Shown one piece after another: positions 41,452 through 56,653 of a stretch of 64,000 nt of DNA. A program made the translations under genes and the position numbers. The stretch is from an uncultured Anaerolineae bacterium (GTDB lineage: Bacteria; Chloroflexota; Anaerolineae; Aggregatilineales; UBA3940), in assembly GCA_964390105.1 (NCBI GenBank), contig CAYMGV010000001.1, positions 334,000 through 397,999 on the forward strand, given 5' to 3'. Position 1 is the first letter of the stretch, and each line of letters begins with the position of its first letter. The notes below the pieces were generated by a model, which had not been told where the DNA came from, searched no databases, and saw only the letters and a program-made list of their open reading frames with translations.

Positions 41452-42570
41452 ATGGAAACGAAACCCCATTTTACGTTTGATCTCATCGCCCGTGACGGTC
41501 ATGCCCGACGCGGGCGGTTTTATACCCCGCACGGCGTCATCGAAACGCCGGTGTTTGCACCCGTGGGCACACAGGCCGCGGTTAAGGCGGTTACCCCGCG
41601 TGATCTGGATGCGTTGGGGGCCTCGCTGGTCCTCGCCAACACCTATCACCTGTACCTACGCCCCGGTGATGAATTGGTGAGAGACATGGGAGGGCTGCAT
41701 GAGTTCATGAACTGGCATGGGCCAATGCTGACCGACAGCGGCGGCTTTCAGGTGTGGAGCCTCGGCTCGATTAACACCGTCGATGATGATGGCGTCACAT
41801 TCAGATCCCATCTTGATGGCTCCAAACATCGATTTACGCCTGAGCGTTCGGTAGAAATTCAGCAGAACCTCGGCGCTGATATCATCATGTGCTTTGATGA
41901 GTTGGCTGACCCTGACAACTACCCGTACATGAAGCAGGCACTGGGGCGCACGCATCAATGGGCGCAGCGCTGTTATGAGGCGTGGACTAACCGCGACCAA
42001 CAAGCGCTGTTTGGAATTGTGCAGGGTGGTATTTACGATGATCTGCGCATGGAATCGGTAGCAGCACTAACTGCGATTGACTTCCCCGGTTACGCCATCG
42101 GAGGGCTGTCTGTGGGGGAGAGTAAGCCCGATATGTATCGCATACTCGACACGGTGTGCCCGGCGCTGCCGGAAGATAAACCACGCTATTTGATGGGTGT
42201 CGGCACAATACCGGACCTCGTCAACGGGGTGGCGCGAGGGGTCGATTTTTTCGATTGTGTTCTGCCCACCCGCGAGGCCCGGCATGGGGCCGCGCTTACC
42301 CGTACAGGCAGGTTGAACATCGCCAACAGCCAATACCGGTATGACCCGCGCCCTATTGAGGAAGACTGTGACTGCTACTGCTGCCAGAACTTCAGCCGCG
42401 CCTATATCCGACATACCTTCAAGGCCAAAGAGATCATCGCACTGACCCTGCTCTCGATCCACAATCTAAGATCGCTGGTCCGGTTGGCGGAGGAAATGCG
42501 GCAGGCCCTTGACAATGATACCTTCAACGACTATTCGCACCGTGTTCTTGCAGCTTTTGCGGCGGAGTAA
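41452..42570 (+). CDS. tgt: queuine tRNA-ribosyltransferase
   Basis: TPVFAPVGT, LANTYHL, the DSGGFQV catalytic Asp region, GGLSVGE and the zinc site CDCYCC...H. Confidence 0.92.
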   Translation: METKPHFTFDLIARDGHARRGRFYTPHGVIETPVFAPVGTQAAVKAVTPRDLDALGASLVLANTYHLYLRPGDELVRDMGGLHEFMNWHGPMLTDSGGFQVWSLGSINTVDDDGVTFRSHLDGSKHRFTPERSVEIQQNLGADIIMCFDELADPDNYPYMKQALGRTHQWAQRCYEAWTNRDQQALFGIVQGGIYDDLRMESVAALTAIDFPGYAIGGLSVGESKPDMYRILDTVCPALPEDKPRYLMGVGTIPDLVNGVARGVDFFDCVLPTREARHGAALTRTGRLNIANSQYRYDPRPIEEDCDCYCCQNFSRAYIRHTFKAKEIIALTLLSIHNLRSLVRLAEEMRQALDNDTFNDYSHRVLAAFAAE

Positions 42571-43390: not shown

Positions 43391-44137
43391 GTGAGACACC
43401 TCGCGGCGGCCCTGCTGGGCTGTTTCCTGCTTTGCGTTGGCTGTGCCCCCTCCCCTGGCAGGCCAGCCTCATCTGACAGCTTGCTGCGCATTGGGACAGA
43501 ACCCGCACTGCATTCGGCTGTCGACCGTGCCATGACGCTGTACGAAGTGTCACATTCAGATATATCGATAAGGGTGGATACGCGCGGCGGGTTGGTCGAG
43601 GCACTTGAATCAGGCCAGCTTGATGCCATCTTCATCATTGACAGAGTCACCGACAATGAGATAATCCAGGCACCCGTAGGCTATGTTGATATAGCCTTAG
43701 TAGTCACCGAGGAATCTCCGCTGAGCAATATCACAGCGGAAGACCTGTCGATAATGATGAAATACGGGGTAGTCACCATTGATGGGGATGTATTCAGCTT
43801 GTTAATTGGAAGTGAATCCACGTCAACATACCGGGCCGTGAGTAATGCGTGGCATGGAGGGCAGCACATCGGGAGCAGTGCGATAGTGTTCCCTGATGAA
43901 CCCACAATGGCAGGCTACCTTCTCACCAACGACACGGTCATCGCGCTGATGCCGGACACACTCAGAACCGATGTCATGCGGCAGTTGACCATAGAGGGCC
44001 AGCAAACCGTTCTTACCGCCAGCGTCATGATCCTGTTCAGGGCGGACTCAGGCCGCCCGGAGCAATTACTGCTGAACTGGCTGCTGAGTGATGAGGGGCA
44101 GTCCGCGCTGGGCGCGTTCATTACTCCCTTGAATTAA
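43391..44137 (+). CDS. lipoprotein with type-2 periplasmic-binding-protein-like fold
   Basis: Lipobox LLCVGC. LLRIGTEPAL...ALESGQLDAIFI resembles PstS/PBP-like substrate-binding domains. No transporter genes are adjacent. Confidence 0.4.
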   Translation: MRHLAAALLGCFLLCVGCAPSPGRPASSDSLLRIGTEPALHSAVDRAMTLYEVSHSDISIRVDTRGGLVEALESGQLDAIFIIDRVTDNEIIQAPVGYVDIALVVTEESPLSNITAEDLSIMMKYGVVTIDGDVFSLLIGSESTSTYRAVSNAWHGGQHIGSSAIVFPDEPTMAGYLLTNDTVIALMPDTLRTDVMRQLTIEGQQTVLTASVMILFRADSGRPEQLLLNWLLSDEGQSALGAFITPLN

Positions 44138-44765
44138 ACCGCTGAAGCCACGGGTTCTCGCGGCGCTCCTCACCTATGGTGGTTTTCTGTCCATGCCCGT
44201 TGTAAACAACCGTTTCATCCGGCAGGGTCAGAAGTTGCGTGCGGATGGAATCCATGAGGATATCCATATTGCCGCCCGGTAAATCGACCCGTCCAATACC
44301 CCGGTTGAACAGCACGTCGCCATCGAATACCACACCGGCATTTGGCTCGTAGAGTGAGATGTGCCCGGGTGCATGACCGGGCGTATCGAGAATCTGAAAG
44401 ATGAGTTCACCAACAGACAGGGTCTCACCGGGCACAAGAAAGAAATCCGGCTCCGGGCTGGGTGGGATCGGGATGTTCCATAAATCAGCCCCACCCCGTG
44501 CCCGCAGCATCGGCACGGCTTCCTCATGAAGCCCCAGCGGTGCCCCGGTCTTCTCGATCATCATGGCATTCCCGCCGATATGATCCCAATGACTGTGCGT
44601 ATCAACGATGAACCTAACTGTGCCTGCGTGGCCCTTGATAGCCTCCAGAATGGCCGGGTCATTCCAGCCGGGGTCAATGATGACGGTCTGACGGGTGATC
44701 TCACACGTCACGACATAACAGTTCGTCTCAATTGGACCGAGAGGAAGTTGTTCAATCAGGATCAT
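44121..44765 (-). CDS. MBL-fold metallo-hydrolase (glyoxalase II-like)
   Basis: The THSHWDHIGG metal motif, TPGHAPGH and a C-terminal NGHG are present. Size is typical of hydroxyacylglutathione-hydrolase-like enzymes. Confidence 0.8.
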   Translation of the reverse strand: MILIEQLPLGPIETNCYVVTCEITRQTVIIDPGWNDPAILEAIKGHAGTVRFIVDTHSHWDHIGGNAMMIEKTGAPLGLHEEAVPMLRARGGADLWNIPIPPSPEPDFFLVPGETLSVGELIFQILDTPGHAPGHISLYEPNAGVVFDGDVLFNRGIGRVDLPGGNMDILMDSIRTQLLTLPDETVVYNGHGQKTTIGEERRENPWLQRFNSRE

Positions 44766-44774
44766 GGCTGATTC

Positions 44775-45683
44775 TCACTGGATAGAAACGTGTTCAAGCA
44801 GGTCGCGTTCAACTCGCTCGCCACGTTCAACTGGCGGATAGGCTCGCATAAAGGTGTACTTCGGGCGTGACAATACGGCTCGGAACACTGCGATCAGATC
44901 GAACAGGGTTTTCCGTCTGTTTTCATCTTCCGGGGTCACTCCGATCTGGCTGGCATGACAGTCCCGGGCCTGTTCAGCAATCGCCTTGTATGATGAGGCA
45001 TCAACACGAGCATGTACCGGGAAGGTATGCTCGACGATCTCGCGCAGGTCAATATCCTTGTTCCGCCCAAATTCGGCTGGGTTCTGACCCAGCAGCGGCA
45101 TGATCGTCACGACCGGCTTGAGCCAGGCGCGGGGAAATGCCTGGTAATAGAGGCGCTGTGGCTGGTATGATGCCAGCCCTTCAGCAAGATGATCCGGGTA
45201 TTCTCCAGGATCGGAAGCTTCATGGAAGGCGCGGGTTGTGGCCTCATACATGCGGATGTGATCGGGATGACCATAGCCGCCAAACGGGTCAAACGTGACG
45301 ACCACCTGGGGCCTGACTTGCCGGATCACGCGCACGATCTGCTCAGTGACTTCACCAGGTGGTGCAGCTACCAATGCACGAGGATGCTCGTTGTCAGGCG
45401 TCCCCGGCATACCAGAATCACGATAGCCCAGCGTAAAAACCTCTTTGAACCCCAACGCCTCACTTGCGCAGGCCAATTCAGCCAAGCGCAGTTCTGCGAT
45501 GCTGTCATACTCATCCAGGTACTTCTCCTCGACCGTACCGACATCGCCGTTTGTCGAACAAATCAGGTATACCTCAGCTCCCTCGTTTACGTAGCGGGCA
45601 ATGGCACCACCCATACCAAATGACTCATCATCCGGGTGAGCGAGGCTGATTAAAATACGGGCACCATGATATGGCTTCTGCAT
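44775..45683 (-). CDS. PIG-L/LmbE-family deacetylase (MshB/Mca-like)
   Basis: AHPDDESFGMGG, GYRDSGMPGT and GYGHPDHI motifs. The ~300-aa length is like MshB/Mca rather than the short BshB. Confidence 0.78.
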   Translation of the reverse strand: MQKPYHGARILISLAHPDDESFGMGGAIARYVNEGAEVYLICSTNGDVGTVEEKYLDEYDSIAELRLAELACASEALGFKEVFTLGYRDSGMPGTPDNEHPRALVAAPPGEVTEQIVRVIRQVRPQVVVTFDPFGGYGHPDHIRMYEATTRAFHEASDPGEYPDHLAEGLASYQPQRLYYQAFPRAWLKPVVTIMPLLGQNPAEFGRNKDIDLREIVEHTFPVHARVDASSYKAIAEQARDCHASQIGVTPEDENRRKTLFDLIAVFRAVLSRPKYTFMRAYPPVERGERVERDLLEHVSIQ

Positions 45684-45697
45684 ACGTATCCCTTGTA

Positions 45698-48346
45698 TTA
45701 ACTCTCTATACGTGTGGATAAAATGTCACTTAAATTGCCCGCCATGAAAGCTGAATACGCTGGTGCGTTATCCAGTATTGGGTCATGCACGGCATCTTCA
45801 CCGGGATAATAGGCGCGAACCATCTCTGGCTGCTCTCCGACCTGCGGTTCTCCACGCAGTGGATCGGGCAGAACCCGCACCAGGGCGCGGATATGCTGCG
45901 TCTTTCCTTCGTCGGTACGACGTGTAAGACGATGAATGCCATCCTCTAACCTTAGCAGACCGTAAGCCCCATATCCACTGACCAGGATGCTATCCTGATC
46001 AGTCACATCACGTACCAGGTACGGCTGATCTTCTGCCCATGCCCGGTACATCTGCATCAACTGTGCGGCCCAATGCGCGGCCTCTGAACGCTTGCCAACT
46101 GGGGTTACGCTCAGGCGGGCGTTGATATGGGGGCTGATTTCGCCCAGCTTCTCAGCAAGCCGAATCCGGCCCATTTCATGAACAATGAACGTATACTTGA
46201 GCATGGCATCGCTGCGATGAGTACCGCGGCCCCCGCCCCTCCCCAACACGTTCTGAAACGCCTCAAAATTGCGCTGAAGCCGCTCAAGCTGCTCGACCCG
46301 GTTACTGAGAGTTGTCACCTCGGATATTTCAACCTGGGCTGTATCGAGGTCATCCCAGACGGAGATCGATGACAACAGCCGCATTCGCTCTGAAAGCTGT
46401 TCGCGCATATCAGCAAGATCGAACTGCGCCAACAGAGAATCCACTTCGCGCCGCAGGGCGGGCAACAATGCGCGCAGTTCGGCGGCACTCAGGGCATCTT
46501 CCATATCGGGGGACACGCCATCAGACGAAAGGTCTGGCAGTTCAAGCGCCGATGCGATGCGCCCCTCACGCATAAACAGCCGTAAAGAGGCACCGTCCGG
46601 CGGTTGGTTACGAATCAACTGCTGGGCCAGTGGGTACGCAATAGCCTTCTCAATCTGGCGGGAGAGATAGCGAGCGCCATAACGTTCGCTGTACCCATGC
46701 TGAACCACCCACTCGATCACGGAGTTCTCGATCTCTACCTCAAGACCGCGCCGCTGAATGCCCTCACGCTGTAGGATTTCCTGCACGCGCCGGTAGGCGA
46801 TCTCACGCAGAACAGACGGAGTCAGCGGTTTAAAGAACGAAATGCTGTCGATGCGGTTGACCAGTTCCGGTGAGAAAAAGCGTACCAGTTCCTCTCGTAT
46901 CTGGTGTTCGTGATCCTCAAGTGAGACGCTGGGGCCAAAGCCCAATCGCGGTGCAGAGAGAATTCGCGCACCAAAGTTACTGGTCAGGATAAATATGGCA
47001 TTCCGCAGGTTGACCACCTCCGAGGTGCCATTGATCAACATACCTTCATCAAACAATTGGAAGAAACGCAGGAACACTTCGGGATGCGCTTTCTCAAATT
47101 CATCCAGCAGGATCACGGAGAACGCCTTATCCTGCAAGCGCATGGTGAACTGCCCGCGCCGCGCTTCCTCGTCGAAGCCATGTGGGTTGCCAAACAGCGT
47201 CCCGACATGCCAGTCCTGTACGTAATCAGCCATGTTGAAACGCACAATCAGGTCTTCACTGCCGAAGAAGAAGGTGGAAAGAGCACGAGCCAGTTCGGTC
47301 TTGCCCACCCCGGTAGGGCCAATAAACAGGAATACGCCCATCGGACGGCGTGGATCATTGAGGCGCGTACGGAGCAGGCTCAGCGTTTGCACTACCGTAT
47401 CAACAGCCGGTTCCTGCCCCAACACATGATGGCCGAACCATGAGCGGACTTCGGCTTCGTCATAAGGCTCATCATCGGTCAGCAGGATGCGTGGCAAGCC
47501 GGTTTTCTCCGCAAACCGTGCAATCACATCCTCAACGGCGAGAACCAGGGCATCTGAAGGTTCGGCAGTGAGCAGGGCCAGCGCTTCGAGAAGCAGGTCG
47601 ATGGCTTTGCCGGGCAGCGCTTCAGCCAACGCAAAGCGCCGTGTCAAATCTATGGCGTGTTCGCTGGCTTCAGGCCGAATTCGCACACCTTCCTTGCGAT
47701 GAATATCCTCAGCTGATGCATGAACAATATCTTGCACGGTCTGGATATCCGGCTCCGTGACCTTGACTTCCATCAGGATGTGCTTGAACTCCGGGTACGC
47801 CGAGAGAAACCCAGCCACGGCATCGGAGCGGCCTTCAGTGATGAGGCGGTTATCTGAACTCTGGAGCTGCCCCAGCAGGAACTGGGCCATATCGAACGGG
47901 TCATCCATCGTGGCACCAGCCGCCAGAGTCGAGGGCAATGCATCAATATACAGAATCACCTCAGGGTGGCTGCCCCACAGGCTCATTAACTGCCCAAGTT
48001 TCTCCTGCCAGCCCAGCACACCGAAAGCACGCAGGATGCTGCGGGCACTCAGCGACCACACCTCGCTGCCCTCAATTGCTGCTGGACAGTCACCCCGGTA
48101 AATGCGCTCGGCAGCAGTGTGGATCACAGCGGTTTTTCCAACACGTGCTGCACCCGTCACCACGATCTGCCCCTTCAGAGGAGAAGCCAGTGACGTCAGA
48201 ATCTGCTCGACCTCGGCATCACGAAAGTACGCAGGCTGTAGGTCGCCAGTCCGTGCCCGCTCAGTGAGATGGATGGCACACTGCTCCAGCAGGCCCCGCA
48301 TCCGGCAAGCACCATCATCAGGTTTACGGCTCGCCTCGGTTGGCAT
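45698..48346 (-). CDS. ClpA/B-type double AAA+ ATPase fused to an RF2-like C-terminal module lacking GGQ
   Basis: D1: GAARVGKT, with a degenerate Walker B ILYIDALP. D2: GPTGVGKT, VILLDEFEKAHP, ILTSNFG, ERYGARYLSRQIEK. The C-terminal ~250 aa carry SVWDDLDTAQ, AHWAAQLMQMYRAWAE, GYGAYGLLRLEDGIHRLTR and VRAYYPGEDAVHDP, which are collinear with RF2 domains 1, 2 and 4. The ATG shares a base with the uvrA stop. Confidence 0.75.
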   Translation of the reverse strand: MPTEASRKPDDGACRMRGLLEQCAIHLTERARTGDLQPAYFRDAEVEQILTSLASPLKGQIVVTGAARVGKTAVIHTAAERIYRGDCPAAIEGSEVWSLSARSILRAFGVLGWQEKLGQLMSLWGSHPEVILYIDALPSTLAAGATMDDPFDMAQFLLGQLQSSDNRLITEGRSDAVAGFLSAYPEFKHILMEVKVTEPDIQTVQDIVHASAEDIHRKEGVRIRPEASEHAIDLTRRFALAEALPGKAIDLLLEALALLTAEPSDALVLAVEDVIARFAEKTGLPRILLTDDEPYDEAEVRSWFGHHVLGQEPAVDTVVQTLSLLRTRLNDPRRPMGVFLFIGPTGVGKTELARALSTFFFGSEDLIVRFNMADYVQDWHVGTLFGNPHGFDEEARRGQFTMRLQDKAFSVILLDEFEKAHPEVFLRFFQLFDEGMLINGTSEVVNLRNAIFILTSNFGARILSAPRLGFGPSVSLEDHEHQIREELVRFFSPELVNRIDSISFFKPLTPSVLREIAYRRVQEILQREGIQRRGLEVEIENSVIEWVVQHGYSERYGARYLSRQIEKAIAYPLAQQLIRNQPPDGASLRLFMREGRIASALELPDLSSDGVSPDMEDALSAAELRALLPALRREVDSLLAQFDLADMREQLSERMRLLSSISVWDDLDTAQVEISEVTTLSNRVEQLERLQRNFEAFQNVLGRGGGRGTHRSDAMLKYTFIVHEMGRIRLAEKLGEISPHINARLSVTPVGKRSEAAHWAAQLMQMYRAWAEDQPYLVRDVTDQDSILVSGYGAYGLLRLEDGIHRLTRRTDEGKTQHIRALVRVLPDPLRGEPQVGEQPEMVRAYYPGEDAVHDPILDNAPAYSAFMAGNLSDILSTRIES

Positions 48347-51258
48347 TATGTTGCTCCCAGCGCCGGGGATGGCACATCAAGTACCTCAGCCAGGAAACTG
48401 CCGGTATAAGACTGTGAGTGCCTGGCAATTTCCTCCGGTGTCCCAGTCGCCACGATCTGGCCGCCCGCGTGGCCGCCTTCGGGTCCTAGATCGATGATGT
48501 AATCCGCCACTTTAATAATATCAAGGTTGTGCTCAATGATAACAACCGTGTTCCCCTGATCGACCAGTGTTTGAAGTACTTCGATCAGACGAGCCACGTC
48601 GTGTGTATGTAAACCTACACTGGGTTCGTCCAGCACATAAAAGGTTTGCCCCGTAGACCGCTTGGCAAGCTCGCGGCTCAGCTTAATGCGCTGAGCCTCG
48701 CCACCTGATAGCGTGGTCGCAGGCTGCCCTAACCGCACGTAACCCAGCCCCACATCGTTTAGAGTTGACACCTTGTTGATGATGCCAGGAAACGCCTCAA
48801 AGACCTCCATAGCCTCAGATACCGTCAAATCCAGCACATCCGCAATGCTAAGCCCCTTGAACTTGACCTGAAGTGTCTCCCGGTTGTAGCGCTGCCCCTT
48901 ACATACATCGCAGGGGATGTAAATATCGGGCAGGAACTGCATCTCAACCTGGATCACACCCTGCCCCTGGCAGGCTTCACAGCGCCCTCCCTTGACGTTG
49001 AAGCTGAAACGTCCCGGCTTATATCCTCTGATCTGGCTTTCGGGCATCTCCGCAAACAGGTTGCGGATCGGGTCAAACATCTTGGTATAGGTTGCCGGGT
49101 TGCTGCGTGGTGTGCGGCCAATCGGGGACTGGTCGATATTGACGATCTTGTCGATATGGTCAATACCGTGCACATCCTCATGCACACCGGCACGCTGGCG
49201 GCTGCCATGCAGCACTTGCGCCAGCCGCTTGTATAACACCTCCAGCAGCAGGGAACTCTTTCCACTGCCGGATACCCCCGTGATGCACACCATCCTGCCC
49301 AGCGGAATATCAACGGTGACATCTTTAAGGTTGTTTTCAGTAGCACCAACAATCGTCAGAGCCTTGCCATTGCCGTTTCGACGTTCTGTCGGCACCTCGA
49401 TGCGCCGGCGGCCTGACAGGTAGGCCCCGGTGATCGAAGCGGGATCATTGATGATGTGTTCGGGTGGGCCACTCGATACGACTGCTCCACCAAACTCCCC
49501 TGCCCCGGGGCCAAGGTCCACGATCCAATCGGCGTGGCGCATGGTTTCCTCATCATGCTCGACGACCAACAGCGTATTGCCAAGGTCGCGCATCCCCTCA
49601 AGCGTCTGAATCAGGCGCATGTTGTCGCGCGGATGCAGCCCAATACTCGGCTCATCCAGCACATAGAGTACCCCCATGAGCTGTGAGCCAATCTGTGTCG
49701 CCAGCCGGATGCGCTGCGCCTCTCCACCGGATAATGACCCAGCGCTACGAGACAGGGTAAGATAGTCGAGGCCCACATTGACCATGAACCTGAGCCGTGA
49801 CTGGATCTCCTTGAGAACCTGGTTGGCAATCGTCAGGTCACGCTCAGAGAGTACAGGCTCACCGCCGTCTTCCCCGGTCAGGATGCGCACCCAATCCAAC
49901 AGGTCACGCACGGGGAGGTTGGTGAGCGTATAGATCGATTGATCATTCACAGTGACAGCGCGTGCCACCGGGTTCAGCCGCTCACCGTGACAAGTCGGGC
50001 AGGGCCGTTCGATCATGTAGCTCTCGATCTTGGACCGGATGTAGTCGGAGCTGGTCTCCCGGTACCGTCGCGACAGGTTGCCAATCACACCTTCATAGCG
50101 AGACTTATACCGGCGCAGATCACCCGCCTTGTTACGGTAGGTAACAGGTATTGCCTTGTTGTCAGTGCCGTATAGCAACACATGTTGATGCTTTTCGGAT
50201 AGCTCACGCCACGGTACATTCATCGGGATGCCATACTCTGCCGCCACTGCCGTCACAACCTGCCGATAGTAGCCTTCCTCGTCCCATGTGTCCCAGCCGG
50301 AAGCGTCGAATGGCCCCTGGCCAAGTGTGATTTCCGGGTTCGGGATGACCATATCAGGTGAAATCTCCAACCGCACCCCCAACCCCTGGCAGTCATCACA
50401 GGCACCGCTCGGATTGTTGAACGAGAAGGTACGCGGCTCGATCTCAGGCAGGCTGATGTTGCAGTGCGGGCAAAACAGGTTTTCGGAGAACAGGATGTCC
50501 TCCCCCGTCTCAGCAACGTTGACAGTTGCAACACCATCGCCCATTTCGAGGGCGGTCTCAATACCATCGGTCAGACGGCTGCGATCCGAGTTAGCTTCTT
50601 CACCATGCGGGTCATCGTAGGCACGAATCACCAACCGGTCGATCACGACTTCGATGGTGTGCGTCTTGTAGCGGTCAAGTTCGATCTCCTCTTCGACCTC
50701 ACGCACCTCACCATTAACACGCACCCGTACGAAGCCCGCCTTGCGGATATCCTCAAATACACGCTGATGATGCCCTTTACGGCCCTTGATGATGGGGGCC
50801 AGCAGCTGCAGGCGCGTGCCTTCCGTCATGTTTTCGATGTTCTCAACGATTTGCTGGGCGGTTTGCCGGATCACTTCACGGCCACAGTTGGGGCAGTGTG
50901 GCACCCCGACCCGGGCATAGAGCAAACGCAGATAGTCATAGACCTCAGTGACCGTCCCCACCGTTGAGCGAGGATTACGGCTCACACCCTTTTGATCAAT
51001 GGAGACTGCCGGGCTGAGTCCCTCGATCTGGTCCACATCGGGTTTGTCCATCCGGCCAAGGAACTGACGCGCATAGGCAGAGAGCGATTCAACATAGCGC
51101 CGCTGCCCCTCCGCGAAGATAGTGTCAAACGCCAACGACGACTTCCCCGATCCGGATAACCCCGTAATGACCACCAGCTTGTCACGGGGTATGTTGAGAT
51201 CGATGTTCTTGAGGTTATGTTCCCGCGCCCCACGGATGATGATACTATCATGCGCCAT
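48346..51258 (-). CDS. uvrA: excinuclease ABC subunit A
   Basis: [47 protein letters not shown], two ABC modules ([18 protein letters not shown] twice) and zinc-finger Cys clusters. ATG 51258 has GAGGGGGA upstream. Confidence 0.95.
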
Positions 51259-51346
51259 GCGTCTTGCTTCCCCCTCAACAACCAAATCCGCACACTTGCG
51301 TACAGATCATTGTAAATTCCAAGGTAGCCTGATATGTTCAGTAATG

Positions 51347-52944: not shown

Positions 52945-54084
52945 ATGACAGGCGTTGAGGCCAGCATTAAAGCACGTGCGAAGGCACTCGGCTTCTCATC
53001 GGCTGGGATTGTTGCTGCCGCCCCAGGCAGACGCATCGAGGCTTACATGGCCTGGGTTGAGGCTGGCATGCACGGCGAAATGGGCTACCTCGCCCGCGAA
53101 GACCGGCTGAACCGGCGGCGTGACCCTGCCATCATCCTGCCGGATATGCGCTCGATTATCAGCGTGACACTGGATTACTTCACCGGGCACCTCCCCGCCT
53201 ACATTACCCAAGACCCAACGCGAGGCCGCATCGCCAGCTACGCATGGCACACCGACTACCATGATGTGATGCTGGAGAAGCTAGCCGCCCTGGAAACCAC
53301 CCTCACCGGCCTCGCCAGCAACAGCCCCACACATCGAAGTTACGTGGATACCGGGGCCATCCTTGAGCGGGACCACGCCGAATCCGCCCGGTTGGGATTC
53401 ACGGGCAAGAATACAATGCTGATTCATCCCCGCCGAGGCAGCACTTTCTTCATCGGCGAAATCCTAACAACGCTGCCACTCGCGCCAGATCGCCCTACCC
53501 CAACACCGGGGTGTGGCACCTGCACGCGCTGCCTCAAGGCCTGCCCCACCGATGCCTTCCCAACTCCATATCAACTTGATGCGCGACGCTGTATCTCATA
53601 CCTTACTATTGAGTTGAAGGGAGCCATCCCGCATGAACTGCGCCCCCTGGTTGGTAACTGGGTGTATGGCTGTGACATCTGCCAGGACGTCTGCCCATGG
53701 CAGCGATTTGCCGGGGACCAGCATCCGGTCTTATTCTCTATGCCGGATACAGCCTATGCAGCCCCCCACCTTACGGACCTGTTGACGCTGACCGAGGAGG
53801 GTTTCAGGGCGCGCTACCAGGACAGCCCTGTTTACCGTGTTAAACGGCACAGGTTGGTTCGGAATGCGTGCGTAGCGGCAGGCAATAGTGGACACACTGC
53901 CCTCGCGGCCCTGCTGATCCCGCTGCTAAAAGATGACGCGAACCTTGTGCGGGGTCATGCCGCGTGGGCATTGGGCGAGTTAAAGAGGGGGCAGGCAGCC
54001 CTGGCGGATGCACGGCAATCCGAATCTGATGCCTATGTTCATGACGAAATCACGCGGGCACTGACCCTGTTCAACTGGAAGTAA
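52945..54084 (+). CDS. queG: tRNA epoxyqueuosine(34) reductase
   Basis: Two 4Fe-4S clusters (CGTCTRCLKACP, CDICQDVCP), ISYLTIE, and C-terminal HEAT-like repeats (VRGHAAWALGEL). Confidence 0.88.
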   Translation: MTGVEASIKARAKALGFSSAGIVAAAPGRRIEAYMAWVEAGMHGEMGYLAREDRLNRRRDPAIILPDMRSIISVTLDYFTGHLPAYITQDPTRGRIASYAWHTDYHDVMLEKLAALETTLTGLASNSPTHRSYVDTGAILERDHAESARLGFTGKNTMLIHPRRGSTFFIGEILTTLPLAPDRPTPTPGCGTCTRCLKACPTDAFPTPYQLDARRCISYLTIELKGAIPHELRPLVGNWVYGCDICQDVCPWQRFAGDQHPVLFSMPDTAYAAPHLTDLLTLTEEGFRARYQDSPVYRVKRHRLVRNACVAAGNSGHTALAALLIPLLKDDANLVRGHAAWALGELKRGQAALADARQSESDAYVHDEITRALTLFNWK

Positions 54085-55164: not shown

Positions 55165-55199
55165 GGGCACGGCACGCTGCGCCGTGCCCTTTTTATTTA
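55165..55199 (+). terminator. intrinsic terminator
   Basis: GGGCACGGC, loop, GCCGTGCCC, followed by TTTTTATTTAT. It also argues against the ORF-track miaB start at 55184, which lies inside the hairpin. Confidence 0.8.
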
Positions 55200-55255
55200 T
55201 CACAATTTTTGATATGATCCAGCCCCGTTTGGTTAGTGAGCGTATTGAGAGCGAT

Positions 55256-56653
55256 ATGGTCAGTCAATCTACCCCAAAAACCTACAACATCCGCACATGG
55301 GGATGCCAGATGAACGAGGCAGACTCACAGCGGCTTGCAAGCGAGTTGGAGCGCTTTGGCCTCACCTACGAGGAAAATGCCGATGAGGCTGATATCATCG
55401 TGCTGAATACCTGCGTCGTGCGGCAAAGCGCCGAGGATCGTGCCTATGGGCGGCTGGGGCAGCTTAAGGTATTAAAGCAAAAGTACCCTGAGAAGGTAAT
55501 TGGGCTGATGGGCTGCCTGGTCGGAGTGCGGGACCCGCTGCCACTGCGCCGGAAGTTCCCTCAAGTGGACGTATTTATGCCGCCCAGTGAACCAGCCCCG
55601 ATGCTTGGCTTCCTGGAAGACCGTGGGCTGGAACGCGAGTGGATCGAGATGGAAGCAAGAGAAACAGCCCGGCGACATGCGATCCAGGATGAGGACCTGA
55701 TCCTGCCCGTGCATGAACTCGGACGGATCGTAACGGCACATGTACCGATTGTGCTGGGCTGCTCCCATGCCTGTACGTTCTGCATTATCCCGTACAAGCG
55801 CGGCGTGGAACGCAGCCGTCGCGTTGGTGAAATCATCGCAGAAATCAGATCGCTGGCACGACAGGGCGTGAAGGAAGTCACCCTGCTGGGCCAGATCGTG
55901 GACCGCTACGGCATGGACATCGAAGATGGCCCCGACCTCGCTGACCTGCTGCAACTGGTGCATGAGGTGGAAGGCATCCAGCGTATCCGGTTCCTCACCT
56001 CACACCCCAACTGGATGACGGACAAGCTGCTGCACACGGTAGCCGACCTGCCCCGGGTCATGCCGCACATTGAGGTGCCCGTCCAGGCTGGCGATGATAC
56101 CGTGCTGAAAAACATGAAACGCGGCTATACGCAGGCACAGTACCGGGCACTGGTCGAGAAAATCAGGGGTATTATCCCGGATGTTGCAATCCACACCGAT
56201 ATTATTGTGGGGTTCCCCGGCGAAACCGAGGATCAGTTCATGCAGACCTACAATCTCCTTGCCAATCTCAAACTGGATAAGGCCCACACCGCGATGTACA
56301 GCATGCGACCGAACACCGTCGCAACACGGCGCATGGATGACAACGTCACCGATGAGGAGAAGAAGCGCCGCTTGTTGATGCTGGACAACCTGCAAAAACA
56401 GGTGGTTGGTGAGATCAACAGCAAGTTCCTTGGTCAGACCGTTGAAGTGCTGGTGGAAAGCAACCATAAGGGTAAATGGCGCGGACGGACCCCGCAAAAC
56501 AAGCTGGTATTCTTTGAGGCTGACGGGAACTGGGTTGGAAAGCAGGCCGAAGTTGAGATCACATGGACTGGGCCGTGGAGTATGCAGGGGCGCCTTCCGG
56601 GAAGCAGCGACGCCTCCGTCCCCACCGATGTGATCCGGATTTCAGCACGATAA
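55256..56653 (+). CDS. miaB: tRNA-i6A37 methylthiotransferase
   Basis: UPF0004 N-domain (TWGCQMNEADS...NTCVVR), radical-SAM motif CSHACTFCIIP and a C-terminal TRAM domain. Confidence 0.9.
   Translation: MVSQSTPKTYNIRTWGCQMNEADSQRLASELERFGLTYEENADEADIIVLNTCVVRQSAEDRAYGRLGQLKVLKQKYPEKVIGLMGCLVGVRDPLPLRRKFPQVDVFMPPSEPAPMLGFLEDRGLEREWIEMEARETARRHAIQDEDLILPVHELGRIVTAHVPIVLGCSHACTFCIIPYKRGVERSRRVGEIIAEIRSLARQGVKEVTLLGQIVDRYGMDIEDGPDLADLLQLVHEVEGIQRIRFLTSHPNWMTDKLLHTVADLPRVMPHIEVPVQAGDDTVLKNMKRGYTQAQYRALVEKIRGIIPDVAIHTDIIVGFPGETEDQFMQTYNLLANLKLDKAHTAMYSMRPNTVATRRMDDNVTDEEKKRRLLMLDNLQKQVVGEINSKFLGQTVEVLVESNHKGKWRGRTPQNKLVFFEADGNWVGKQAEVEITWTGPWSMQGRLPGSSDASVPTDVIRISAR

Follow-up and report, generated by a model that had tools for sequence, protein, structure and literature searches.

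The minus-strand gene at 45698..48346 of the window, by which we mean the whole 64,000-nucleotide (nt) stretch of DNA analysed here (uncultured Anaerolineae bacterium, contig CAYMGV010000001.1, positions 334,000 to 397,999), encodes a two-tier ClpA/ClpC-type AAA+ ATPase joined via a flexible linker to a paralog of RF2, a class-I release factor (RF), that is catalytically dead. The matches to AAA+ and RF2 profiles and folds far exceed chance, and comparison with its relatives reveals the window protein to be a reduced form within a large, apparently undescribed family that spans several phyla. The fusion is a real and non-trivial finding; its function is putative, and we infer a role on the ribosome.

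Gene and domain layout

The architecture had been proposed in an earlier note made from the sequence alone. Translation located the open reading frame (ORF) and every motif quoted in that note where they had been placed, and likewise verified the absence of the tripeptide GGQ. The two AAA+ modules, denoted D1 and D2, and the parts of the RF2-like module are arranged as follows (lengths and positions in amino acids, aa; pLDDT, predicted local distance difference test).

45698..48346, minus strand: whole gene, AAA+/RF2-like fusion, 882 aa, ATG start (translation; identical protein P0001 in the public collection)
47357..48298, minus strand: D1 AAA+ module, ClpA/ClpC-type, aa 17-330 (ClpA model alignment; AAA_lid_9 at 207-263)
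48131..48154, minus strand: D1 Walker A, GAARVGKT, aa 65-72
47933..47956, minus strand: D1 degenerate Walker B, ILYIDALP, aa 131-138, with Ala at the expected catalytic Glu
46547..47356, minus strand: D2 AAA+ module and D2-small domain, aa 331-600 (AAA_2, 8e-39; ClpB_D2-small, 3.5e-13)
47297..47320, minus strand: D2 Walker A, GPTGVGKT, aa 343-350 (invariant in alignment A2)
47156..47191, minus strand: D2 pore-loop-1 position, GNPHGFDEEARR, aa 386-397 (aligns to the GAPPGYVGYEEGG loop of ClpB/ClpE; GYVG lost)
47081..47116, minus strand: D2 Walker B, VILLDEFEKAHP, aa 411-422
46931..46948, minus strand: RLGFGP loop, aa 467-472, where ClpA and ClpE have their ClpP-docking tripeptide (PDB alignments)
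46487..46546, minus strand: linker from AAA+ core to RF2-like module, aa 601-620, of which 606-617 are predicted to be disordered (pLDDT <50 at 606-617)
46142..46486, minus strand: RF2-like domain 1, aa 621-735, helical bundle (PCRF and prfB matches, RF2 alignment, helices 621-734 in the model)
45860..46141, minus strand: RF2-like domain 2, aa 736-829 (RF2 alignments)
45821..45859, minus strand: 13-aa stub LRGEPQVGEQPEM, aa 830-842, substituting for domain 3 plus the switch loop (family alignment that includes E. coli RF2)
45701..45820, minus strand: RF2-like domain 4 remnant, aa 843-882 (alignments)

A sequence check places the further motifs ILTSNFG, ERYGARYLSRQIEK and RRTDEG at residues 453, 554 and 809, respectively. 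In the Pfam annotation the AAA+ part is covered by AAA_lid_9 (207-263), AAA_2 (334-502) and ClpB_D2-small (508-588), and positions 164-727 of the NCBIfam ClpA model align to residues 16-585. As the latter alignment begins at model position 164 and residue 16, the Clp N-domain is absent, and Clp_N was unmatched in the Pfam scan of the window protein. The long middle domain (M-domain) is missing as well: the ClpB alignment splits in two pieces with the M-domain skipped, D1 spans ~310 aa and the model contains no long coiled coil. The earlier note was thus right on both absences. The full-length AlphaFold model has a pLDDT of 90.3, with low confidence only at the linker residues 606-617 and the stub residues 830-833 (the latter also <50).

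An assembly or annotation artefact, joining a Clp ATPase gene to a truncated prfB, has a negligible probability and was ruled out: the frame is uninterrupted, both halves are under purifying selection in that one frame, and the same arrangement recurs in >110 independent proteins and ~75 independently assembled loci, complete genomes included. The assembly join or frameshift that the earlier note had allowed for is thereby excluded, and the fusion stands as a single gene.

The RF2-like module retains the fold and has lost the functional motifs

The collinearity of the C-terminal tail with RF2, previously noticed by eye, is recovered by profiles as well as by structure. Pfam PCRF (PF03462) matches residues 648-811 (5.8e-12, 46.3 bits vs a gathering cut-off of 24), and positions 3-194 of the NCBIfam prfB model TIGR00020 align to residues 630-810 (8.5e-18), at a score of 64.5 bits vs the cut-off of 370. 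The AlphaFold model of the tail has a pLDDT of 88, and its top 49 Foldseek matches in the PDB are all class-I release factors, RF2 being the best at 2.9e-14. A PDB sequence search with the tail returned RF2 at 4.8e-11, and the match to RF2 is better than that to RF1. The Pfam check of the tail came out divided, however: PCRF was matched, whereas RF-1 (PF00472) was found neither in the scan of the window protein nor even in long family members.

The C-terminus of a typical member of 1,020 aa (P0003) aligns to residues 33-362 of the 365 of E. coli RF2 (6e-28), from which a complete RF2 paralog follows as the ancestral state. Most members keep such a full-length paralog with a degenerate, GGQ-less domain 3. 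In the window protein, alignment with E. coli RF2 confirmed that the stub at 830-842 stands for ~100 aa including the GGQ loop, plus the switch loop, and that RRTDEG occupies the SPF position; the replacement of domain 3 and the place of RRTDEG are as first proposed. Domain 3 and the switch loop are deleted also in the 90%-identical protein P0002 and partly in P0022, and domain 3 is lost in several long-form clades (Hyphomicrobium, Lysobacter and some Anaerolineae). With domain 3 absent from several clades, its loss is evidently recurrent.

The sites of codon reading are altered throughout. In the window protein the GGTE tip has become VGKRSE, SPF has become RRTDEG and His214 has become Gln. 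Residue conservation was followed in 102 Chloroflexota members with E. coli RF2 numbering, and in these the GGTE tip of alpha-5 is rich in K/R, the SPF site is variable, His214 is mostly Gln, and GGQ is replaced by x-G-[LV]-[LF]. GGQ occurs nowhere in the window protein, and at the catalytic loop in 0/80 members across phyla; here and below, counts out of 80 cover the best 80 of at least 531 loci. Occasional GGQ strings in the tails of relatives were considered as catalytic motifs and rejected, none being located at the catalytic loop. With the GGTE tip, SPF and the reading His gone the module cannot read stop codons, and with GGQ absent in 80/80 it cannot hydrolyse peptidyl-tRNA.

Conversely, residues of the RF fold are invariant among the 102 Chloroflexota members (W144, L192, E195, G197, H199, R324, Y326 and D335). 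Residues W664, W759, Y767, W770, G791, L798, G803 and H805 of the window protein are invariant as well. Domain 1 keeps a motif of the FW(D/N)D type, VWDD in the window protein. The Trp of the switch loop (W-G-S-x-V-R-S-Y) is kept in 29 of the 102 members, all of which retain domain 3. In the domain 4 remnant of the window protein R-x-Y is retained, whereas the D-x-R-T-G of the family has degenerated to DPILD. In the predicted structure domain 1 and the decoding-centre superdomain (domains 2 and 4) keep their fold, and the K/R-rich tip at the codon-contact position looks like retained RNA binding. Domains 2 and 4 of RF2 bind the decoding centre. Domain 1 is the GTPase-interacting domain of release factors, as described by Burroughs and Aravind (PMC6514570).

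An AAA+ core with a degenerate D1 and an intact D2

The assignment of two ClpA/B-type modules was upheld by the profile matches given above and by structure: the AAA+ part of the full-length model (first 600 residues) gave Foldseek matches to ClpC, ClpC1, ClpA and ClpB at E (expectation value) ~1e-40, the closest structures being ClpC and ClpC1 in ClpP-bound complexes. Among the equivalog models of NCBIfam for ClpA, ClpB, ClpV, ClpG and ClpK, none reached its cut-off (ClpB 323 vs 1232, ClpA 303 vs 993, ClpV 290 vs 885).

The catalytic motifs of the two tiers have fared differently. The Walker A GK[TS] of D1 is retained in 79/80 family members, while the DE of Walker B is found in none of the 80, the window protein having IDAL. 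The Arg fingers (ERRF) and sensor-1 (GATT) of D1 are not conserved among family members and are lost in the window protein. With the P-loop kept, and with neither the Walker B Glu nor the Arg fingers nor sensor-1 remaining, D1 should bind nucleotide but be catalytically dead, acting only as a nucleotide-binding assembly tier, in keeping with the hydrolysis-dead D1 originally suggested. For D2, the suggestion of an intact module holds across the family: all 80 of 80 members have both the DE of Walker B and the Arg finger, and Walker A, the sensor-1 Asn and the sensor-2 GAR are conserved in the family members tabulated. With all catalytic motifs present, D2 is the active motor, and since its trans-acting Arg finger is kept, it presumably works in a ring.

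Two features of the core had not been noticed in the earlier note, namely degenerate pore-1 loops and a conserved L-G-F loop of ClpP-docking type. The GYVG loop in D2 is the main translocating element of ClpA and ClpB. In the present family it is lost throughout: the window protein reads NPHGFD, the segment is variable and gap-prone among members, and any Y/F/W is present within it in only 44/80. The tyrosine of the D1 loop KYRG is lost in the Chloroflexota and Myxococcota clades (FGVLGW in the window protein), and Ar-x-G in D1 is found in only 30/80 members, the long forms keeping Y-[IFL]-G. A complementary pattern was observed between clades. Long forms carry Y-[IFL]-G in the dead D1 and no aromatic residue in the D2 pore-loop columns, and the short forms of Chloroflexota and Myxococcota, in which the D1 tyrosine is gone, often have H/Y/W-G/A in the D2 loop. 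The earlier reading of the core as an unfoldase is accordingly weakened: an AAA+ motor is clearly present, but the degenerate pore loops argue for a short-stroke remodeller over a classical processive unfoldase.

In PDB alignments the RLGFGP loop falls opposite IGL in BAP/ClpA and VGF in ClpE. At this position x-G-[FLIY] is present in 79/80 members, with a surrounding loop that varies in sequence and length; in the full-length model the loop has a lower pLDDT of 71-79. The conserved x-G-F is a ClpP-docking-type tripeptide, which makes ClpP a putative binding partner. To our knowledge, proteins of ClpB type lack the ClpP-docking loop.

A large family with a constant C-terminus

In the protein database >110 full-length homologs were found with the same Pfam set and 35-90% identity, under generic names only ("AAA family ATPase", "PCRF domain-containing protein" and, at JGI, "ClpA/protein subunit release factor B"). 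Scanning a single genome for each species located the fusion in at least 531 loci, hence it is no one-off; the tail profile is unsuited to counting the family, as canonical RF2s score strongly with it too. The best 80 loci include Chloroflexota (Anaerolineae, Chloroflexia and Herpetosiphon giganteus DSM 589), Myxococcota (Archangium, Myxococcus and Pyxidicoccus), Alphaproteobacteria (Hyphomicrobium and Rhodomicrobium), Gammaproteobacteria (Lysobacter antibioticus and Woeseiaceae), Acidobacteriota, Armatimonadota and Eisenbacteria. Complete genomes carrying the fusion include those of Archangium minus (CP043494) and Myxococcus sp. Y35 (CP143624). In a set of 72,556 plasmids, no record covered ≥80% of the protein.

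The literature held no description of the fusion that we could find, the release-factor survey of Burroughs and Aravind (PMC6514570) is silent on it, and no NCBIfam model covers it. The remark in the earlier note that its author knew of no described family with this architecture thus agrees with the literature and the curated families alike.

Family members vary in what precedes the AAA+ core, while the RF2-like C-terminus stays constant. The window protein has no N-terminal addition. In the Hyphomicrobium (L054) and Lysobacter antibioticus (L079) proteins an N-terminal ~300 aa contain, by eye, an apparent transmembrane helix, followed by ~250 aa with no Pfam match, and some long-form members may be membrane-anchored. 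Two further loci (L022 and L049) encode an N-terminal ~200 aa that are HicB/UPF0150-like (Pfam 1.7e-06), and P0133 and P0168 begin with ~430 aa of TPR-like repeats, again judged by eye. One protein of 364 aa with a Met start (P0127) consists of the GGQ-less RF2-like module alone and shows motifs typical of the family, among them KGQFLKKLRS where GGQ would be; either the module exists here on its own or the gene call is truncated.

The two halves diverge at different rates. Between P0001 and P0002 identity is 94% in D1, 99% in D2 and 72-79% in the RF domains; between P0003 and P0012 the corresponding values are 74%, 84% and 56-66%. The ratio of nonsynonymous to synonymous substitution rates (dN/dS), computed with the L081 gene as reference, amounts to 0.024 in the AAA+ part, 0.005 in D2 alone and 0.19 in the tail; the linker has 0.16 and the domain 4 remnant 0.35. 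D2 is thus under extreme purifying selection. The tail is relaxed yet clearly constrained, and is no decaying remnant.

Genomic neighbourhood

Two genes flank the fusion gene closely on the same strand.

48346..51285, minus strand: uvrA (listed ORF, TTG start), directly upstream and probably co-transcribed (translation)
44775..45683, minus strand: PIG-L/LmbE-family deacetylase gene, 14 nt downstream (Pfam PIG-L, 6.7e-34)

The ATG of the fusion gene overlaps the uvrA stop codon by 1 nt (TAATG), and the same overlap is present in L081. The true start of uvrA is probably the ATG at ~51258, nine codons past the TTG, after which a canonical UvrA N-terminus follows. A promoter-like site (51384-51356) and a hairpin (51308-51285) lie on the minus strand just upstream of uvrA. 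Beyond the PIG-L gene a metallo-beta-lactamase-fold hydrolase gene comes next on the same strand with very short gaps (44121-45683 together with the PIG-L gene).

The earlier note had asked whether orthologs always follow uvrA. They do not: of ~75 loci, uvrA adjacency is seen only in three closely related ones, namely the window, L081 (90% identity) and L001 (55%), and it is absent from ~70 others, so that an obligate uvrA linkage is ruled out. The PIG-L gene also neighbours the homolog in L001 and L014, and uvrA, the fusion gene and the PIG-L gene form a clade-specific gene string. A conserved operon partner was likewise ruled out by clustering 1,014 ORFs from the 80 loci and the window, in which no family occurred in >10 loci and none was adjacent across clades; Pfam annotation of 10 neighbours returned unrelated functions. 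The fusion gene behaves as a stand-alone unit.

Some neighbours deserve mention in their own right. A RecG helicase gene, a second neighbour from DNA repair beside uvrA, adjoins the homolog in one Hyphomicrobium locus (L068:12964-15282, minus strand), and a gene for a DpnII/MboI-like restriction endonuclease domain protein adjoins the Archangium homolog (L016:12964-13815, plus strand); neither is conserved. Within 10 kb of the window gene, on the opposite strand, lie three tRNA-modification genes: tgt (41452-42570, plus strand; TGT 9e-156), queG (QueG_DUF1730 and Fer4_16; 52945-54084, plus strand) and a gene for a MiaB/RimO-type radical-SAM methylthiotransferase (UPF0004, Radical_SAM and TRAM; 55184-56653, plus strand). 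These three are all translation-related and lie outside the operon of the fusion gene, and their proximity may be coincidence.

Proposed mechanism and alternatives

The reading we favour is that of an AAA+ remodeller targeted to the ribosomal A site, a splitter or evictor possibly coupled to ClpP; taken by itself it falls somewhat short of an even chance, and all ribosome-directed models together somewhat exceed one. Ribosome binding by the RF2-like module is suggested by the RF2 fold, the invariant RF-signature residues and the basic tip. The codon-blind RF2 shell would act as an anchor at the A site and decoding centre, perhaps aided by the K/R-rich tip. The AAA+ ring, joined next to RF2 domain 1, would be placed at the factor-binding face; domain 1 normally faces the partner GTPase. 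ATP hydrolysis by D2 would then remodel the bound complex, with the outcome being eviction of a factor or, much as with Pelota-ABCE1, the splitting of a ribosome that is idle or stalled. In view of the conserved x-G-F docking-type loop, an alternative would be that the ring passes a ribosome-bound protein to ClpP. That the family constitutes a self-contained bacterial ribosome-surveillance machine, a convergent counterpart of Pelota-ABCE1 or Vms1-Cdc48, is a more tentative proposal still.

Several observations weigh against the A-site remodeller. Canonical RF2 does not bind stably to nonstop ribosomes without a stop codon or ArfA (PMC12646239), and a codon-blind shell may accordingly need another binding platform. 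The tail of the window protein is the most eroded version in the family and that of its lineage evolves ~8x faster than the motor; together with the loss of the switch loop and of D-x-R-T-G, this suggests that docking may be weakened or changed in this lineage. The C-terminal tail is located on the D2 (ClpP-facing) side of the ring, opposite the usual substrate entry. The lost GYVG and KYRG tyrosines are hard to reconcile with threading into ClpP, and the neighbour clustering of the 80 loci revealed no conserved gene neighbour that links the family to translation.

Alternatively, the RF2 tail may have been repurposed off the ribosome, and would then help a specialised Clp ATPase to bind substrates, to be regulated or to oligomerise; it might form an autoinhibitory lid over the D2 face or a platform for non-ribosomal RNA or protein. 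All known functional elements of RF2 are gone, both codon reading and GGQ, with domain 3 missing entirely from several clades, the tail of the window lineage evolves fast and has lost D-x-R-T-G, translation-related neighbours are not conserved, and the D2 face, at which the tail is located, is the docking side for partners such as ClpP. Still, a structural appendage need not stay RF2-like, as the family does over the full RF2 length at 6e-28, and the fold of the decoding-centre superdomain and the RF-signature residues are invariant across phyla. The switch-loop Trp kept in 29/102 Chloroflexota members and the K/R-rich codon-contact tip, with its look of retained RNA binding, also speak for the ribosome, and we regard the repurposed tail as rather unlikely. 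A related possibility, lower again in our estimate, is a ribosome-tethered Clp protease, in which a hexamer would dock ClpP via the LGF loops and, by classical threading with unusual pore loops, degrade a protein held at a stalled ribosome; its targets might be trapped factors, ribosomal proteins or released nascent chains. It would account for the x-G-[FLIY] at the position of the ClpA IGL and ClpE VGF in 79/80 members, for the nearest structures being ClpC and ClpC1 in ClpP-bound complexes, and for the Y-[IFL]-G pore loop in the D1 of long-form relatives. However, D2 has lost GYVG in all members, D1, which bears the surviving Tyr in some clades, cannot hydrolyse ATP, and six tails of 30-45 kDa would crowd in beside the ClpP-docking face.

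The dead RF2 might also serve as an A-site plug that stops translation in conflict or stress (abortive infection, dormancy), the ring and the N-terminal sensors timing its action. The variable N-terminal modules (TPR, HicB-like, transmembrane anchor or none) on a constant C-terminus and the patchy distribution over several phyla would suit such an effector, a DpnII-like nuclease and a DUF2779 protein turn up beside the homolog in two loci, the PADLOC models DolB and PDC-M37B are similar to the AAA core, and release-factor paralogs recur in conflict systems (PMC6514570). Membership of a defence system was nevertheless rejected, since the PADLOC matches are limited to the generic AAA core. The clustering of the 80 loci found neither a conserved partner gene nor a defence island, no copy was found on the 72,556 plasmids, the window gene lies within a housekeeping gene string containing uvrA, and the purifying selection on D2 is extreme; the plug is consequently improbable. 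Least persuasive among the functional readings, and very improbable, is a link to nucleotide-excision repair through coupling to uvrA, e.g. clearance of ribosomes from damaged, transcription-coupled templates. In both the window and L081 the end of uvrA and the start of the fusion gene overlap, uvrA is upstream in L001 too and RecG is adjacent in one distant locus (L068), but uvrA is a neighbour in only three closely related loci of ~75, and no DNA-repair neighbour is conserved across the family.

Significance and comparison with known systems

Bacterial ribosome rescue and recycling are currently explained by tmRNA, ArfA/ArfB, RqcH, HflX, MutS2/SmrB and RRF/EF-G. We know of no AAA+ machine targeted to the bacterial ribosome, nor of a described catalytically dead bacterial release-factor paralog analogous to Pelota. 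A dead RF2 joined to a Clp-type motor is a testable candidate for both, and at least 531 species-level genomes carry the fusion, including some from tractable or culturable organisms (Myxococcus, Archangium, Lysobacter and Herpetosiphon). If the surveillance-machine proposal is true, a codon-blind dead RF2 would probe the A site and the attached ring would carry out splitting, eviction or delivery to ClpP. The AAA+ design is unusual in combining a dead D1, an intact D2 with degenerate pore loops, a ClpP-docking motif and a targeting domain that is C-terminal instead of N-terminal, and it is relevant to AAA+ mechanism even if the target is not the ribosome.

The closest relatives of the core are ClpC, ClpC1 and ClpA, with which it shares two AAA+ tiers with AAA_lid_9, AAA_2 and D2-small, intact catalytic motifs in D2, and the best structural matches (TM-score, i.e. 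template modelling score, ~0.8 normalised to the target). The hydrophobic-G-F tripeptide at the position of the ClpP-docking loop is likewise a predicted likeness to ClpA and ClpE. Unlike ClpC, ClpC1 and ClpA, the family protein has neither Clp_N nor an M-domain, its D1 is dead, the KYRG and GYVG tyrosines are lost, it carries a C-terminal RF2-like module of 260-400 aa, and it scores far below the equivalog cut-offs. From ClpB and Hsp104 the window protein differs by the absence of the long coiled-coil M-domain in D1. DolB (Dodola) and PDC-M37B have an AAA_2-type core that matches at E 1e-33 and 1e-28, but the similarity is confined to aa 299-460 (model positions 132-280 of 375). We know of no RF-like domain in DolB or PDC-M37B systems, and no DolA-like conserved neighbour emerged from the neighbour clustering of the 80 loci, in which no search was aimed at DolA.

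The pairing of a release-factor paralog with an NTPase has eukaryotic and archaeal parallels in concept only. Pelota/Dom34 with ABCE1 or Hbs1 is likewise an RF paralog minus codon recognition and the catalytic Gln, coupled to an NTPase on stalled ribosomes (PMC6514570). The folds are unrelated, however (aeRF1 vs bacterial RF; ABC ATPase or GTPase vs AAA+), and Pelota and its partner are separate polypeptides. Pelota acts on stalled ribosomes; for the present family a role at the ribosome is putative. Similarly, Vms1/ANKZF1 with Cdc48/p97, of the eukaryotic RQC, pairs an RF-like ribosome binder with a two-ring AAA+ ATPase (PMC6514570). Unlike the present family, Vms1 is catalytically active and recruits Cdc48 by a VIM motif without being fused to it, and the pore loops of Cdc48 work; the common AAA+ class aside, Vms1 and Cdc48 have no evolutionary relationship to the domains of the family.

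Within the class-I release factors, the module is collinear with RF2 (prfB) in domain 1 and in the domain 2/4 superdomain, in sequence as well as in fold. Unlike RF2, it has no GGQ, SPF, GGTE tip or PF00472 match, and it is fused to an ATPase. PrfH (RFH) and ArfB are also derived from class-I release factors and are specialised for non-canonical ribosome states. PrfH lacks domain 1, keeps the catalytic GGQ domain and pairs with RtcB, whereas the family module has no RtcB partner; ArfB consists of the GGQ domain and a tail. The present family is the inverse of both, keeping domains 1, 2 and 4 with the GGQ domain lost or degenerate.

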